This document shows, one piece after another, positions 290 through 52,530 of a stretch of DNA of 53,746 nt (the first letter of the stretch is position 1; each line of letters opens with the position of its first letter). The notes under the pieces are model-generated. The model ran no database searches and had not been told where the DNA came from. It saw only the letters and a list, made by a program, of their open reading frames with translations. Location of the stretch: the NCBI GenBank assembly GCA_963575745.1, contig CAUYUJ010000289.1, positions 62,001 through 115,746 on the forward strand, written 5' to 3'. The position numbers and the translations under genes are program-made. This DNA is from Prorocentrum cordatum. Lineage: Eukaryota.

Positions 290-25356
<25,067 letters not shown>

Positions 25357-28778: not shown

Positions 28779-30387
28779 TTTTTCCCAACCCTCCTGCGTT
28801 GGGTTCTCGTTTTGAATAGAGCACTGCTCGCGCCTTCCTTCCCGCCCCCCCCCCGTCCCTCTCTTCCCCCCTGCCTTCGCTCGTCGCCGCGTGCCGCCTG
28901 GGGGGCTGCGATCTGTGAAACTGACGCCACTTTCGAGGCCTGCTGGGGGGCCCAGCACAGTGGGTACACACGGCGGACTCAAATGAGACCTCGCCATCCC
29001 TGGGGGGCTGCGATCTGTGAAACTGTCGCCACTTTCGAGGCCTGCTGGGGGGCCCAGCACAGTGGCACACGGCGGACTCAAATTAGACCTCGCCATCCCT
29101 GGGGGGCTGCGATCTGTGAAACTGTCGCCACTTTCGAGGCCTGCTGGGGGGCCCAGCACAGTGGGTACCCACGGCGGACTCAAATGGGACCTCGCCATCC
29201 CTGGGGGGCTGCGATCTGTGAAACTGTCGCCACTTTCGAGGCCTGCTGGGGGGCCCAGCACAGTGGGTACCCACGGCGGACTCAAATTAGACCTCGCCAT
29301 CCCTGGGGGGCTGCGATCTGTGAAACTGTCGCCACTTTCGAGGCCTGCTGGGGGGGCTAACACAGTGGGTACACACGGCGGGCCCGAATGGGACCTCGCC
29401 ATCCTTGGGGGGCTGCGATCTGTGAAACTGTCGCCACTTTCGAGGCTTGCTGGGAGGCCCAGCGCAATGGGTACCCACGGCGGATTCAAATGGGGCCTCG
29501 CCATCTCTGGGGGGCTGCGATCTGTGAAACTATCGCCACTTTCGAGGCCTGCTGGGGGGCCCAGCACAGTGGGTACACACGGCGGACTCAAATGAGACCT
29601 CGCCATCCCTGGGGGGCTGCGATCTGTGAAACTGTCGCCATTTTCGAGGCCTGCTGGGGGACCCAACACAGTGGGTACTCACCGCAGATTCAAATTAGAC
29701 CTCGCCATCCCTGGGGGGCTGCGATCTGTGAAACTGTCGCCATTTTCGGGGCTTGCTGAGGGGCCCAACGCGGTGGGTACCCACCGCAGGCTCAAATTAG
29801 ACATCGCCATCCCTGGGGGGCTGCGATCTGTGAAACTGTCGCCGCTTTCGAGGCCTGCTGGGGGGCCCAGCGCAGTGGATACCCACCGCACACTCAAATT
29901 AGACCTCGCCACCCCTGGGGGGCTGCGATCTGTGAAACTGTCGCCGCTTTCGAGGGTTGCTGAGGGGCACAGCACAGTGGGTATTCACCGCGGATCCAAA
30001 CGGGACCTCGCCGTCCTTGGGGGGCTGCGATCTGCGAAACTGTCGCCACTTTCGAGGGTTGCTGAGGGGCGCAGCACAGTGGGTACCCACCGCAGACTCA
30101 AACTAGACGCCGCTTTCGTCCTTGTTCTCCTCCTGCAGTCACCTTCCCTCTGCTGCAGCCGTGCTGATGGTTCGGCATCCCGCACGTTTTTCTCTTGGTC
30201 TGTGTTCCCGATTCCCCATGTCTTCTTCGAGCCTGTAGCTGTCGCCCCTCGTTCTTGTATGGTTCTCCTGCGCATCATGCCATAGGCGCGTGTCCCAAGT
30301 AGCTTACACATCAAGTTGATTGTCCATGCAAGGTTCGGCTAACTCCTCGTTTCCATTGGCACAAATGGGTTAGGTACAGGGTAATTT
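28779..30387 (+). mobile_element. Non-autonomous Helentron/DINE-like element with central 102-bp tandem array and captured unique fragment
   Basis: Starts TTTTT-CCCAACCCTCCTGCGTTGGG-TTCTCGTTTTGAATAGAG (5' stem-loop), then a pyrimidine tract, the tandem array and unique 30107-30360; ends GGGTTAGGTACAGGGTAA-TTT. Termini are shared with 32767-37114. Confidence 0.55.
28895..30105. repeat. Tandem satellite, ~102-bp unit, ~12 copies (variant A)
   Basis: Repeating cctcgccatccctggggggctgcgatctgtgaaactgtcgccactttcgaggcctgctggggggcccagcacagtgggtacccacggcggactcaaat. Confidence 0.95.
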
Positions 30388-30924: not shown

Positions 30925-31018
<94 letters not shown>

Positions 31019-32056: not shown

Positions 32057-32115
<59 letters not shown>

Positions 32116-32766: not shown

Positions 32767-32859
32767 TTTTTCCCAACCCTCCTTGGTTGGGGATTCGTTT
32801 TGAATAGAGGGGTGTGGTCGCGTCCTCCTTCTCCCGCCTCCCGCCTCCGTCTTGTCTCC

Positions 32860-33921
32860 TCTCGCCATCCCTGGGGGGCTGCGATTTGTGAAACTGTCGC
32901 CACTTTCGAGGGCTGCTGGGGAGGCCAGCAGAGAGGGTACTCACCGCGGATCCAAACGGGACCTCGCCGCCCCTGGGGGGTTGCGATCTGCGAAACTGTC
33001 GCCACTTTCGAGGGCTGCTGGGGAGGCCAGCAGAGAGGGTACTCACCGCGGATCCAAACGGGACCTCGCCGTCCCTGGGGGGCTGCGATCTGTGACGCTG
33101 TCGCCACTTTCGAGGGCTGCTGGGGAGGCCAGCAGAGATGGTACCACCGCGGATCCAAACGGGACCTCGCCGTCCCTGGGGGGCTGCGATCTGTGAAACT
33201 GTCGCCACTTTCGAGGGCTGCTGGGGAGGCCAGCAGAGAGGGTACTCACCGCGGATCCAAACGGGACCTCGCCGTCCCTGGGGGGCTGCGATCTGTGAAA
33301 CTGTCGCCACTTTCGAGGGCTGCTGGGGGGCCAGCAGAGAGGGCACTCACCGCGGATCCAAACGGGACCTCGCCGTCCTTGGGGGGCTGCGATCTGCGAA
33401 ACTGTCGCCACTTTCGAGGGCTGCTGGGGGGCCAGCAGAGGGGTGTCGCCGTCCCTGGGGGCTGCGATCTGTGGGAAGGCTCACTTCGCCACTTTCGAGG
33501 GCTGCTGGGGAGGCCAGCAGAGAGGGCACTCACCGCGGATCCAAACGGGACCTCGCCGTCCCTGGGGGGCTGCGATCTGTGAAACTGTCGCCACTTTCGA
33601 GGGCTGCTGGGGAGGCAAGCAGAGAGGGTACTCACCGCGGATCCAAACGGGACCTCGCCGTCCCTGGGGGGCTGCGATTTGCGAAACTGTCGCCACTTTC
33701 GAGGGCTGCTGGGGAGGCCAGCAGAGAGGGTACTCACCGCGGATCCAAACAGGACCTGGCCATCCTTGGGGGGCTGCGATATGCGAAACCGTCGCCACTT
33801 TCGAGGGCTGCTGGGGAGGCCAGCAGAGAGGGCACTCACCGCGGATCCAAACGGGACCTCGCCGTCCCTGGGGGGCTGCGATTTGCGAAACTGTCGCCAC
33901 TTTCGAGGGCTGCTGGTGGGT
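32860..33921. repeat. Tandem satellite, ~102-bp unit, ~10 copies (variant B)
   Basis: Same core (gggctgcgatctgtgaaactgtcgccactttcgagg) with variable part gaggccagcagagagggtactcaccgcggatccaaacggg; units start near 32863, 32965 and 33067. Confidence 0.95.
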
Positions 33922-33935
33922 CCTGCGGAGTGAGG

Positions 33936-35470
33936 TTTTTTTCACTGTGTGCGAACGCCAAGCAAAACTCTGCAAGCAGGTTCAAACTTCGCGGCATGAA
34001 AAATGAGGCTAACTGCATAAGTCTGCCTAGCCAGCGTGCGCCTGCAGGGCCGATACGATCGGCAGGAGCCTTGTAGCCTCTACCGGGACCAACCGCGACG
34101 CTGCACTCAAAACGGGTGCCACTAGCCACGGCTCTTCCCGCAGCTGTCTAATTACCTCACCTCCGTCGGAAAAGCGGCTGAGCAACCTGAGGTCAGAGAC
34201 CGAGAGCGCCTTCGCACCCTCGTCAAAACTCGAGCCGGAAAAATGCTGCCCAGAAAAAGCCGAAACTTCCACCTCACCCGAAAGAGCGCTCATAGCCATC
34301 TGATCGGAGGGCGCCTCAACCGAAGGAGGCAGCCCCAAACCAGCGTCAACGGACACTCCTGGGCAAGCCTCGGAAAGAGGCTCAGCCAAAATGGCCGCTG
34401 AAAGGCGAACCTCATCAGACGGAGGCTCAGCCAAAAAGGAATCCACAAGAGTAGGGCGAGCCTCAACAGTTGGAGGCTCAGCCAAACCAGCACTTGAGGA
34501 GACCACTGAGGGAGATATTGCAGAAGCGGCTTCAACGACAGACGAGCGAGCCTCATCAGAGGGAGGCTCAGCCAAGAATGCTTTTGAAACCACATCTTCA
34601 TGCACAGCAGCGGCTTCAGCGACAGACGAGCGAGCCTCATCAGAGGGAGGCTCAGCCAAGAATGCGTTTGAACCCACATCATATTTCTCCCTCTTCTTGT
34701 GTTTTCTTTTACGGCGCACGCGCTCGCCGATAAAGAAATTCAAGGCCTTGGCGTCCTCCTCGGCGGGATGCGGGGAATGCGGACTGGTGGAGGCGGCGGC
34801 GGCAGCACCTGCACCACAGAGCTGGTCGGTGCAGCACTTGCTGGCGGGGGTGCTGGCGGCCACTCCTTCAAGCCCGCCTTGGCCTCCTCCGAGCGGACAT
34901 CCTTGTTCTTCTTCTTGTGCTTGCGCTTCCGAGGGCGCTTGGCCTCTGCCACCGCTGGAGCCGGAGGCGGCGTCGGGATCTTCAGGCAAGCCCTCGGAGC
35001 GTCCTGAGACTCCGGAGGAAGCGAGAATACCTCCTTCGCTACCGGCGGTGTCGGGGACCTCGTACTGGCACCGTCGCACTTCTCCTTCAAAGCCGGGGCC
35101 ACAGGCGGAGCCGACGCCTCCTTCTGGTTGACCTGCAAACGGTCCCATCTCCTCAGGCGTTTTATTGGCTGCACCTCCTCCTCCTCCGGCTTCAGCGGCA
35201 GGGAATCCTGCCCCGGAATCTGCATGCCCTTGCTGAACTCCATGTCCACCACATCGACCAGGCTCCAAATCCCTGGCGGCGGTAACGGGGGGGGCAGCCG
35301 TAGACAGAGCCTCCTGCGAAAACGACGATCTCGAGCTCATCGTTGGAAACTCCGAAGCACTGAGTGAAAGCACTAATACGGTCTCCTAGTGAGGTGCCCA
35401 GCAAATCAACCGGCACAAAAAAGCGCATGGACGGGGCCTTGAGCCGGGGTGGCTTGAGCCAGGCTACGGA
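33936..35470 (-). pseudogene. Processed retrocopy of a spliced-leader trans-spliced mRNA (intronless, frameshifted; product with RKRKHKK basic motifs and LAEPP repeats)
   Basis: Minus strand begins TCCGTAGCCTGGCTCAAG CCACCCCGGCTCAAG GCCCCGTCC ATG (ATG at 35428), ends in A7 (T run 33936-33942), and is flanked by direct repeat CCTGCGGAGTGAGG at 33922-33935 and 35471-35484. The coding sequence appears to pass through three frames and stops at 34027. Confidence 0.85.
35438..35470 (-). other. Dinoflagellate spliced leader (DinoSL) remnant plus tandem relict SL
   Basis: 35470-35453 TCCGTAGCC----TGGCTCAAG versus canonical DCCGTAGCCATTTTGGCTCAAG (ATTT deleted); 35452-35438 CCACCCCGGCTCAAG versus canonical 15-nt relict CCATTTTGGCTCAAG. 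Confidence 0.85.
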
Positions 35471-36990
35471 CCTGCGGAGTGAGGCGCCGCGCGGACCTGA
35501 GCGGGACCTCGCCGTCCATGGGGGGCTGCGATCTGCGAAACTGTCGCCACTTTCGAGGGCTGCTGGTGGGTCCTGCGGGGTGAGGCACCGCGCGGGCCTG
35601 AGCGGGACCTCGCCGTCCCTGGGGCTGCGATCTGCGAAGCTGTCGCCACTTTCGAGGGCTGCTGGTGGGTCCTGCGGAGTGAGGCGCCGCGCGGACCTGA
35701 GCGGGACCTCGCCGTCCCTGGGGGGCTGCGATCCGCGAGACTGTCGCCACTTTCGAGGGCTGCTGGTGGGTCCTGCGGAGTGAGGCGCCGCGCGGAACTG
35801 AGCGGGACGTCGCCGTCCCTGGGGGGCTGCGATCTGTGAAACTGTCGCCAGTTTCGAGGGCTGCTGGTGGGTCTTGCGGAGTGAGGCACCGCGCGGACCT
35901 GAGCCCGACCTCGCCGTGCCTGGGGGGCTGCGATCTGCGAACCTGTCGCCACTTTCGAGGGCTGCTGGTGGGTCCTGCGGAGTGAGGCACCGCGCGGGCC
36001 TGAGCGGGACCTCGCCGTCCCTGGGGGCTGCGATCTGCGAAACTGTCGCCACTTTCGAGGGCTGCTGGTGGGTCCTGCGGAGTGAGGCACCGCGCGGACC
36101 TGAGCGGGACCTCGCCGTCCCTGGGGGGCTGCGATCTGCGAAACTGTCGCCTTTTTCGAGGGCTGCTGATGGGTCCTGCGGAATGAGGCGCCGCGCGGAC
36201 CTGAGCGGGTCCTCGCCGTCCCTGGGGGGATGCGATCTGCGAAACTGTCGCCACTTTCGAGGGCGGCTGGTGGGTCCTGCGGAGTGAGGCACCGCGCGGA
36301 CCTGAGCGGGACCTCGCCGTCCCTGGTGGGGCTGCGATCTGAGCGAAACTGTCGCCACTTTCAGGGCTGCTGGTGGGTCCTGCGGAGTGAGGCACCGCGC
36401 GGACCTGAGCGGGACCTCGCCGTGCCTGGGGGGCTGCGATCTGCGAAACTGTCGCCACTTTCGAGGGCTGCTGGTGGGTCCTGCGGAGTGAGGCACCGCG
36501 CGGACCTGAGCGGGACCTCGCCGTCCCAGGGGGCTGCGATCTGCGAAGCTGTCGCCACTTTCGAGGGCTGCTGGTGGGTCCTGCGGAGTGAGGCACCGCG
36601 CGGCCTGAGCGGACCTCGCCGTCCCTGCGATCTGCGAAGTGTGCGCCACTTTCGAGGCTGCTGAAACTCGTCCCTGGGGGGTTGCGATCTGCGAAACTGT
36701 CGCCACTTTCGAGGGCTGCTGGTGGGTCCTGCGAAGTGAGGCACCGCGCGGACCTGAGCGGGACCTCGCCGTCCCTGGGGGGTTGCGATCTGCGAAACTG
36801 TCGCCACTTTCGAGGGCTGCTGGTGGGTCCTGTGGGGTTAGGCACCGCGCGGATCTGAGCGGGAACTCGCCGTCCCTGGGGGGCTGCGATCTGCGAAACT
36901 GTCGCCACTTTCGAGGGCTGCTGGTGGGTCCAGCGGGGCGAGGCACCACGCAGATCTGAGCGGGACATCGCAATCCTTGGGGGGCTGCGA
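35471..36990. repeat. Tandem satellite, ~101-102-bp unit, ~15 copies (variant C)
   Basis: Same core with variable part tgggtcctgcggagtgaggcaccgcgcggacctgagcggg. Confidence 0.95.
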
Positions 36991-39204: not shown

Positions 39205-40534
39205 GCGTGAGTGTTCATTCCCCACGTTTGTCCTCGATTAGGGGGCCTCATGCGAACCCTGCCCCTACCCCCCACGTTTTCTGAGGGGGAGGGGTAGGGT
39301 TCGCATGTGGCCCCCTATCGATTTTGGCCCGTGGAGCCCCTTCCTGGCCAAACAGCCATGGATCCGGGATCCGGGACAAAAGACTGCCCCTCAAGGGACG
39401 AAAACATATCGTCGGGCGTCTGGGTTTGGGCGTAGTCATCTGGCCCGGGGCGTCCAGGGTATTTCCAGAGGCTCTAGGCCTCCTAGATGGGGTCCGAGTA
39501 GATGGGGTCGGAGGATCGCGCCGCATCGCCCGTGAATCGGCGATGCGGCTCGATGTGGAGCCCGATTTTTCCCACGCTGGCGTCGCGGATGCGTCGCCGA
39601 CGTCGCCGATGCATCGCCGATGCATCGCCGATGCATCGCCGATGCGGCGCGATCCGTCGACCCCACCCAGTCGGATGCCATCTGGGAGGCCTCTATTTTC
39701 AGAGGCCCCCGACCAGAGTTTTTTGCTTTGTTTGCGCGTCTCGCCCGCTCATCCCCGATCTTTCAGGAGTATGGGGAAATATGGGAAAATATGGGGAATC
39801 TTTTTATTAGTGTGTATTTATTTAATCGCTTCGCTCATGCCGCCGGCCCTGGAGCCCTCTTTAGGGCCTCTTGGGGGCCTCTTGGGGACCTCTTGGGAGT
39901 CTCTTGGGGCTCCTTGGCGGCGTTTTGGAGGCCCCCAGGGCCTCTTGGGGGGCTCTTGGGGGTAGTCGATTGCGGCTCCCCCCTCGGAGGCCACGATCCT
40001 CGTGAGGGGTGTCGAAAAATACCCTCCCCTGGAGTGGTCTGGTGGCTTCTCCCGGGCTTCTCTCGGGACCTTGCCGGGGTACTTTTCGTCCGGGGGCCCC
40101 CAGGGGCCGCTCCGCGCGCGCGAACTAGAAATATTGTTAACAAGTTACCGGAGATCTTAGCACGCCTCTGGCCCGTTGGGCCGGCGAATTTGTGTGTCCT
40201 GGGGCTCCTTTAATCTTGTCCCGAGTGCCCAGCCTTCCCTATATAGAAATGCGGTTTTGCGATCGGGGACCTGTCGCCGAGCTATATCGGCGAGGCGTCG
40301 TCGCGATGGCAGGCAGGGCGTGTGCCTCCTGAGGCGTCTCACCCCTTCGGCCTCCCTCCTTTCGAGGAAGCAGAAGAGCGCCACGAACGTAACTTTTCGG
40401 CGCTCCGCGCGGATTTCCTGGATCCGCTCCGGGGCCCCCCTGGCGGCGCCTCCGGCGCCGCCCCCCTGGTGCGCTCCGCAACATGGGGAGGGGGGTCCAG
40501 CGCGTATGCAAGAAATCCGCGCGGACCGTCGAAC

Positions 40535-40679
<145 letters not shown>

Positions 40680-41527
40680 TTGTTCTTCCTCTAATGTCAG
40701 CAGGGTGGCATCATTCAACATCGAGAGCGTGCAGCATCGAAAGTCCAAGGCTTCCAGCGTCTGGCAAGAGTCAGGACGGCTTGCTTCTCCGATTTGTTAT
40801 TGAGGCTTGTTTCGAGCCCTGGGGCCTGCCGAACATTGCCCACGGCGCGAAAATCATGCGGCCGAAATGGTCGAGTGCACTTAAGCATCGAACGAGTTTT
40901 GGAAGTATATTTGAGGCTGCTTGGAGGCAGATCGATCCTCTCTTAGGACTTGTTTGGGGATCTTGGGGGCCTTCTTGGGGCAGTCTTGGACGCCACGTCC
41001 ATCGGCCCCCGGAAGACACCGAACTCGAGGCGCACACCGGCATCAAACGGCTCCAGAAGTGCCCCAAACACTGAAACAGGTCGCAAGAAGGGTCTCGACA
41101 GGGCTCCAACGGGGCGTCAAGAGCACCCCAAAAGAGCTTCAAAGGGTCCGAAGAGGAATCCCAATCCTCGAATCCCAACCCTCGAATCCAATGTGTTCTC
41201 TCGCTCCGCTGATGCACTTCGGCGCACCGTGACACAGATGCTCAGCCCGCCTGGGACTTGCCTAACCCAGGGGTGAGCTCGGTGGCTTAACCTGCTCGAG
41301 CCAAACCCCTCGAATCCGAGGCTCCGCCCAACATGGGTTTTCATCCGTGGTCTGTCCTTCTGTCCGCGGCTGGCCAGGGCGACCACCACGCCAAAGTATT
41401 CGTAACCCCCAGTCCACAGACGAGGGGGGAAGTGCTGCGGCACGAGGGCCCACGACCGAGACCACGACGACGACGACGACGCCGACGACGACGAGGATGA
41501 CGACGACGACGACGACGACGACGATGT

Positions 41528-41602
<75 letters not shown>

Positions 41603-44589: not shown

Positions 44590-52530
<7,941 letters not shown>

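Follow-up and report, generated by a model that had tools for sequence, protein, structure and literature searches.

A 1535-nt insert interrupts a tandem satellite in the window analysed here, a 53,746-nt stretch of a Prorocentrum cordatum contig (CAUYUJ010000289.1). It opens with a DNA-encoded dinoflagellate spliced leader (SL), directly followed by a second, truncated leader; it carries protein-coding sequence, ends in a run of seven A residues and is bounded on both sides by the same 14-mer. We consider it probable that the insert is a retrocopy of a mature mRNA, placed in one satellite unit by target-primed reverse transcription (TPRT). Its ends and flanks are as follows.

32861–33921, plus strand: left flank, A-type 102-nt satellite, 10 units (32896–33892, one of them aberrant)
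33922–33935, no strand assigned: flanking repeat copy 1, CCTGCGGAGTGAGG, adjoining the A-tail
33936–35470, minus strand: the whole insert, 1535 nt, GC 0.594, read as a processed copy of an SL-trans-spliced, polyadenylated mRNA
33936–33942, minus strand: A7, poly(A) tail remnant, T7 on the plus strand, abutting the flanking repeat directly
35438–35452, minus strand: relict leader CCACCCCGGCTCAAG, directly after the first leader and starting exactly past its internal AG
35453–35470, minus strand: DNA-encoded spliced leader TCCGTAGCC/TGGCTCAAG, DinoSL from base 1 without four internal bases (ATTT)
35471–35484, no strand assigned: flanking repeat copy 2, CCTGCGGAGTGAGG, adjoining the leader
35485–36990, plus strand: right flank, B-type 101-nt satellite (remainder of the interrupted unit, then 14 full units and a truncated one)

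Ends of the insert and its satellite target

From 35470 onwards, the minus-strand sequence is T-CCGTAGCC-TGGCTCAAG. The canonical dinoflagellate leader is given as DCCGUAGCCAUUUUGGCUCAAG in excerpts of PMC5585692 and PMC7245778 (papers are cited throughout for excerpts of their text); compared with it, the insert leader has no substitution and one 4-nt internal deletion, and the match runs from base 1. The gapped pattern CCGTAGCC-N0-6-GGCTCAAG occurred once in the window and in none of 100 shuffles. A first-pass annotation, made from the sequence alone, had placed the start of the copy exactly at leader nucleotide 1. The match from base 1 bears this out, but four bases of the leader are missing and the 5′ boundary can be placed only to within 3 nt, because the flanks match over 17 nt if one mismatch is allowed (GGtCCTG.. 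versus GGaCCTG..). At this junction ‘gga’ is the complement of leader bases 1–3 (TCC), where the target would yield ACC; ACC would also be compatible with the degenerate leader base D. The simplest reading of the junction is a full-length leader with a 2-nt CC microhomology.

The second leader was overlooked in the first-pass annotation. CCACCCCGGCTCAAG agrees at 11 of 15 positions with the relict form CCATTTTGGCTCAAG printed in PMC12014239, and the pattern GGCTCAAG-CCA-N3-5-GGCTCAAG was found once in the window, again with 0 of 100 shuffles matching. According to the model described in PMC3229502, the internal AG of a leader is reused as trans-splice acceptor, which truncates the relict; a leader followed by an AG-truncated relict is the structure that the recycling model predicts (PMC3229502, PMC12014239). 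Since the relict lies directly behind the first leader, the source mRNA would itself have been transcribed from a retrogene. As judged from its sequence, CCACCCCGGCTCAAG marks an earlier round of retroposition, and the copy would be at least second-generation. If the copy were expressed and re-spliced at the AG of its own leader, the new relict expected would be CCTGGCTCAAG. No further SL-like sites were found in the window, where the remaining GGCTCAAG 8-mers are about as frequent as chance predicts (5 observed versus 3.1 expected). Rfam at its gathering threshold gave no match in the window, so that no SL RNA gene or tRNA lies nearby.

At the other end, A7 was read on both strands, as previously annotated; by the unit-by-unit map, intact B units have no T run at its position. 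The flanking repeats, also read on both strands, are identical at 14 of 14 positions, in agreement with the earlier claim of the same 14-mer on both sides. A repeat scan found only internal repeats and the flanking 14/17-mer, with no long terminal repeats (LTRs) or terminal inverted repeats on the insert; an introner or DNA-transposon reading was rejected for lack of terminal inverted repeats. A scan of the window for target-site duplications beside A-runs returned only the 33936–35470 element, tandem-repeat artefacts aside, and neither a second copy of the insert nor a parent was found in the 53.7 kb.

The unit-by-unit map resolves the surrounding DNA into one satellite with three variants (C, A and B), which have a common 63-nt core and differ in a segment of ∼38 nt. 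The third variant lies apart from the insert:

28923–30102: C-type units, n = 12 (satellite map)

The 14-mer is confined to the B-type segment. With up to one mismatch allowed, it matches the window 14 times, always on the plus strand and 10 times exactly, versus 0.07 expected. The first-pass annotation had counted it once per satellite unit, which is true of the right-hand B-type units; none of the 10 left-hand units has it, the interrupted unit aside. That unit (anchor 33893) consists of an A-like core, then B-type sequence for 19–20 nt (TGGgtCCTGCGGAGTGAGG), then the insert; copy 1 of the 14-mer and the 5 nt before it are the only B-type satellite to the left of the insert. Past the insert the 14-mer recurs and the B unit resumes in register (cgccgcgcggacctgagc...). 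When the flanks are joined and one of the two 14-mers is taken out, a normal B unit results, with the reconstructed empty site ..GGAGTGAGG^CGCCGCGC... The right-hand B units display this empty target (..GTGAGG^CGCCGC..), confirming the earlier statement that neighbouring units reveal it. A folded structure at the target was considered and rejected, the B unit folded as DNA giving z = 0.59 against shuffles.

It is very improbable that the insert is an assembly artefact, in which the assembler would have fused a chimeric or transcript-derived read with a collapsed satellite, using the 14-mer as overlap. Assembly of satellites is prone to error, and both frame changes described below fall at C homopolymers, as is typical of read errors. 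Nevertheless, the window contains no N, the 19–20 nt of B-type sequence left of the insert continue in register on its right, and a cDNA contaminant would not have satellite on both sides.

The C-type and A/B arrays themselves look like paralogous blocks, because a homologous segment of ∼100 nt (‘..ttcccaaccctcc..ttttgaatagag..’, ∼75% identity) precedes both of them (28779–28881 and 32767–32872). The AT-rich DNA around both arrays is otherwise unrelated.

Coding content

Between the tail and the relict leader, the minus strand of the insert is divided as follows.

33943–34026, minus strand: 3′ untranslated region (UTR), 84 nt, then the TAG stop of frame 1 at 34027–34029
34030–34846, minus strand: frame-1 coding part, with six FLAEPPSDEAR-type repeats (34309–34662) and a conserved C-terminal domain (34030–34356)
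34846–34850, minus strand: C5 run, zone of the apparent frame change from 2 to 1, its exact site putative
34803–35273, minus strand: frame-2 coding part (..GIWSLVDVVDMEFSKG..RKRKHKKKNKD..), G+C at third codon positions (GC3) ∼0.8
35287–35294, minus strand: C8 run, apparent and putative frame change from 0 to 2
35295–35428, minus strand: putative N-terminal coding part in frame 0

A putative ORF in frame 0 begins at 35428, where the mRNA has its first AUG, and continues without a stop as far as 35194; use of this AUG would leave a 5′ UTR of 42 nt. Frame 2 is open from 35336 to 34742 with a GC3 of 0.7–0.84, as measured by position-specific GC. Its open reading frame (ORF) of 167 aa matches database protein P0001 (‘unnamed protein product, partial [Prorocentrum cordatum]’) with 137 of 147 residues identical (93%, E = 2.2e-81), and the match runs 10 residues upstream of the Met of this ORF. 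Upstream of GIWSLV the gene model of P0001 departs from the insert, and it does so at a cag|GG site, possibly an intron border in this paralog.

Frame 1 is open for 452 codons and contains a 437-aa ORF from an ATG at 35340. Its FLAEPPSDEAR-type repeats differ synonymously at third positions (CCC/CCA/CCG/CCT; TCT/TCC/TCG), and its last ∼110 residues align with P0002 (77%) and P0004 (60%), with indels that are in-frame. Identity ranges to the relatives are 77–85% for P0002, 78–79% for P0003 and 58–60% for P0004. P0003, a 64-aa database ORF (79% identical) that matches the window at 34957–35148 in frame 1, lies in a shadow frame: the frame-1 ORF is, in its 5′ half, best interpreted as the shadow of the GC3-rich frame 2. 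P0003 carries the EukProt label of a green alga (Pyramimonas sp.), which likely reflects cross-contamination or mislabelling of that dataset.

The best-supported order of frames would thus be 0, then 2, then 1, switching at or near C homopolymers. The coding content is, on sequence evidence, real, given the P0001 match, the C-terminus with its in-frame indels and the synonymous variation of the repeats. The frame changes reflect either a copy or parent that is a decaying pseudogene, or errors of homopolymer length in the assembly, and in the copy the ancestral protein no longer seems to be encoded by a single frame. Short retained introns, another candidate cause, were dropped by eye, the candidate intervals being only ∼40–55 nt.

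The C-terminal domain (34030–34356) is probably helical. AlphaFold2, run on alignment A1, modelled only the helical C-terminal 55 residues (mean predicted local distance difference test score, pLDDT, 53.5), too poor a model for a fold search. The gene family looks low-copy. Protein search with the frame-1 ORF gave three meaningful matches and one spurious one, two of which were recovered in a word-based search, and a single cluster was found for the 5′ half. A near-length protein search with the 437-aa ORF gave no match; the highest protein Atlas score for residues 300–437 was 0.84, which is under the lead threshold; and two scans of prokaryotic genome contigs (600 and 475 pattern matches) confirmed no relative. 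Pfam recognized no family in three ORFs of the insert, and thus no reverse transcriptase or endonuclease domain. The first-pass annotation had proposed a search for a parental transcript or paralog sharing the 5′ end of the copy; P0001–P0004 provide paralogs at the protein level, but answer the question at that level only and not for the 5′ end.

One copy of the coding repeats (34381–34394, minus strand) reads CCATTTTGGCTGAG, which differs from the relict leader by one substitution and one deletion, and the core of the repeats, TTGGCTGAGCC, is similar to the leader's TTGGCTCAAG. This leader-like sequence may be due to chance, or be an old leader remnant absorbed into the coding sequence.

Origin of the insert and history of the array

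The insert ends in a leader, a relict, A7 and a 14-bp repeat; its empty site can be reconstructed; it has no transposon-type termini; and its protein-coding relatives lie elsewhere. We therefore favour, with a probability of about 0.78, a processed retrocopy of an SL-bearing, A-tailed mRNA, made by TPRT into a B-type satellite unit. The source would have been a mature nuclear mRNA of a Prorocentrum-type dinoflagellate, trans-spliced to a leader, polyadenylated and transcribed from an older retrogene; the engine would have been a non-LTR retroelement acting in trans. Its endonuclease would have nicked the plus strand of the window at GGAGTGAGG^CGCCGC, and the free 3′ end of flanking copy 1, ..GTGAGG-3′ on the plus strand, would have primed first-strand cDNA on the poly(A) tail, such that the cDNA begins TTTTTTTCACTG.... 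Synthesis would then have reached the capped first base of the leader, or ended up to 3 nt short of it, and a second nick 14 nt away would have yielded the flanking duplication. Both the identity of the enzyme and the order of the nicks are inferred from the product.

The length of the flanking repeat falls within the ∼7–20 bp range of target-primed insertion, with an 87-bp deletion as an equal formal alternative. The putative nick site, GGAGTGAGG^CGCCGC, is not T-rich and does not resemble the TTTT/AA target of L1, in keeping with the GC-rich, non-L1 target of the first-pass annotation. As the primer has no T with which to pair with the tail, the endonuclease would differ from that of L1 in its target.

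Several observations weigh against this reading. The array has a period of 101 nt, and a 14-bp duplication is therefore formally the same as a target deletion of 87 bp (or 87+101n); a duplication of 14+101n is likewise indistinguishable. The repeat, previously called unambiguous, is thus not so, and that the 14-bp overlap is a duplication rather than a deletion is what we infer. An identical 14-mer is present in 8 of the 12 other B-unit matches, and perfect identity therefore proves neither that both copies derive from the same unit nor that the insertion is young. The insert sits at the boundary between A and B units, which is either a ∼1-in-26 coincidence, as estimated post hoc, or a sign of later rearrangement. 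The tail has only 7 A, and the primer end GTGAGG offers it no T to pair with, unlike L1 sites. The T tract is altered in both leader copies, deleted (4 nt) in the first and replaced by CCCC for the expected TTTT in the relict; candidate causes are mutation after insertion, slippage of the reverse transcriptase or a variant leader gene. Papers on Prorocentrum appear to use the canonical leader. The relatives are known as protein fragments only, the parent locus and its 5′ end not being among them. Finally, the 189 window ORFs outside the insert that were scanned with Pfam contain no reverse transcriptase or endonuclease domain. The 4-nt leader deletion and the two apparent frame changes also mean that the locus is not the ‘clean’ snapshot it had been called.

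Some of these observations would be accounted for if the cDNA of an SL-bearing mRNA had been captured, independently of an endonuclease, at a double-strand break in the satellite. A stretch of 87 bp (or 87+101n bp) would then have been lost, and the 14-bp ‘duplication’ would be the phase offset between two units. The tandem period makes deletion and duplication indistinguishable, the GC-rich junction has no T run for pairing with the tail, the 5′ junction has its CC microhomology, and the position at the A/B boundary suggests local rearrangement. However, random loss would put only ∼16 of 101 phase offsets in the 5–20 bp range typical of staggered nicks, and both ends of the insert are complete (the leader from base 1 to 3, and the A-tail), with no filler or truncation. 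We regard break capture as improbable.

Synthesis of the cDNA by an LTR-retrotransposon or another non-LINE (long interspersed nuclear element) reverse transcriptase, with insertion by integrase or recombination, appears highly improbable. The retroposition enzyme of dinoflagellates is only presumed, and a Ty1/copia-type source is mentioned as a candidate in excerpts of PMC5585692, with direct evidence for the enzyme described as lacking. No LINE was found among the 189 ORFs. On the other hand, neither an LTR nor sequence derived from an element adjoins the insert, and the 14-bp repeat and the junction of tail to target are not integrase-like. Integrases give short fixed duplications. For the LINE-type TPRT proposed in the first-pass annotation, what stands is the full-length, SL-bearing, A-tailed copy in a satellite; the enzyme is putative, no reverse transcriptase or endonuclease domain having been found among the ORFs scanned.

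Of 87 ORFs with 200 aa or more, that scan covered 56, and of 150 ORFs of 100–199 aa it covered 133. To obtain the 150, a set of 302 ORFs of ≥100 aa was filtered by length (<200 aa) and entropy (≥3.55); 31 of the long ORFs (nested, low-complexity or satellite frames) and 17 of the shorter ones (satellite, or the opposite strand of the insert) were left out. None of the 189 matched a Pfam family above its curated cut-off, and weak matches to SR-25, CXCL17, Metchnikowin, FixQ and MINT_RAM7, all below cut-off, were treated as noise. The region looks gene-poor because these ORFs gave no Pfam domain above cut-off.

The boundary between satellite variants falls exactly in the unit that bears the insert: of the 10 units on the left none is B-type, while all 14 full units on the right are. 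This suggests that the insert has formed a barrier against homogenisation or that the array underwent a later rearrangement. The insert may have broken homology, after which each side was homogenised on its own or A-type units took over the left side; the B-type stub of 19 nt might then have been protected for want of a homologous partner on its right. Were the barrier reading to hold, the insertion would be old relative to satellite turnover despite its perfect repeat.

A more far-reaching interpretation, which we offer tentatively and consider rather doubtful, is that the locus preserves the first base-resolution footprint of endonuclease-dependent TPRT in dinoflagellate mRNA recycling. It would comprise a 14-nt staggered cut at GTGAGG^CGCCGC without pairing to the A-tail, made by a non-L1-type and possibly satellite-directed element, together with an insert that split a satellite into separately homogenised A and B arrays and left a 19-nt B stub as a fossil. 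If true, it would point to a retroposition engine of that kind, non-L1-type and possibly satellite-directed.

Elsewhere, the window contains very long homopolymers: T72 with A20 immediately after it (30927–31018), T58 (32058–32115) and T146 (40536–40681). No flanking duplication lies beside them, and they therefore do not look like further retrocopy tails. A donor-like GTGAGT at ∼39209 is followed by a 36-nt inverted repeat (39239–39274 / 39282–39317, 89% complementary), and a second pair with 71-nt arms, 83% complementary, lies within 39476–39692; these pairs (39209–39317 and 39476–39692) resemble the P. cordatum introner elements described in an excerpt of PMC10666404. Trinucleotide microsatellites (CCT/GGA, CGT/GAC, TGA, TTG) are unusually dense across the window, for example at 1862–2455, 4212–4404, 5288–5688, 15137–15773, 16157–16782, 41460–41601, 47434–47800 and 52163–52397. 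Further satellites have units of 77 nt (9660–10568), 138 nt (45777–46300), 21 nt (51277–51828) and 101 nt (24255–24551). The composition of the window is consistent with the 59.7% G+C given for P. cordatum in PMC10666404; together with the label of P0001, it indicates P. cordatum or a near relative as host.

Comparison with known systems

The insert is a real and well-preserved single case of a known and expected process, the recycling of mRNAs into the genome. The recycling model (Slamovits & Keeling 2008) is described in excerpts of PMC3229502, PMC5585692, PMC6050394 and PMC12014239, and SL-tagged retrogenes are put at ∼22–25% of dinoflagellate genes or transcripts (PMC6050394, PMC5585692). 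Target sites go unmentioned in the excerpted texts of PMC6050394, PMC5585692, PMC12014239, PMC11453091, PMC3229502 and PMC7245778, as do direct repeats in those of PMC6050394, PMC5585692, PMC12014239 and PMC3229502 and target-site duplications in that of PMC12014239; these negatives are provisional and concern those texts alone. A copy with both junctions intact provides a testable template (duplication length, sequence of the nick site, full-length cDNA, no tail pairing), which could guide a genome-wide survey and help to match retrocopies to a retroelement family.

Like other DinoSL retrogenes, the insert has a DNA-encoded 5′ leader followed by a relict leader truncated at an internal AG, a dinoflagellate host and a protein-coding cargo. 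No parent lies within the 53.7-kb window, whereas most Symbiodinium retrogenes are <10 kb from their parents according to an excerpt of PMC5585692. The insert also differs in that its two junctions, with leader, A-tail and flanking repeat, can be read at base resolution, and in its location, which is a satellite and not the upstream region of an annotated gene. Its leader has a 4-nt deletion, and its relict has CCCC for TTTT.

Mammalian L1-mediated processed pseudogenes are full-length mRNA copies with a 3′ A-tail at the target and a duplication of 7–20 bp. The insert shares with them a full-length copy, an A-tail set against the target and a putative duplication in the 7–20 bp range, and like them it appears to carry no introns or promoter and has an apparently decayed reading frame. 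It differs in its GC-rich nick without T for pairing with the tail, in having only 7 A, and in the trans-spliced leader at its 5′ end. L1 is named in PMC5585692 and PMC12014239.

Other non-LTR elements are site-specific in tandem repeats, such as R2 in ribosomal DNA and SLACS/CZAR in spliced-leader genes. Here the insert is a copy of a cellular mRNA and not an element, and at the same position, GTGAGG^CGCCGC, none of the window's 14 other full B units is interrupted. With R2, SLACS and CZAR it has in common a defined position within a tandem unit, a GC-rich site and insertion without pairing of the tail to the target.

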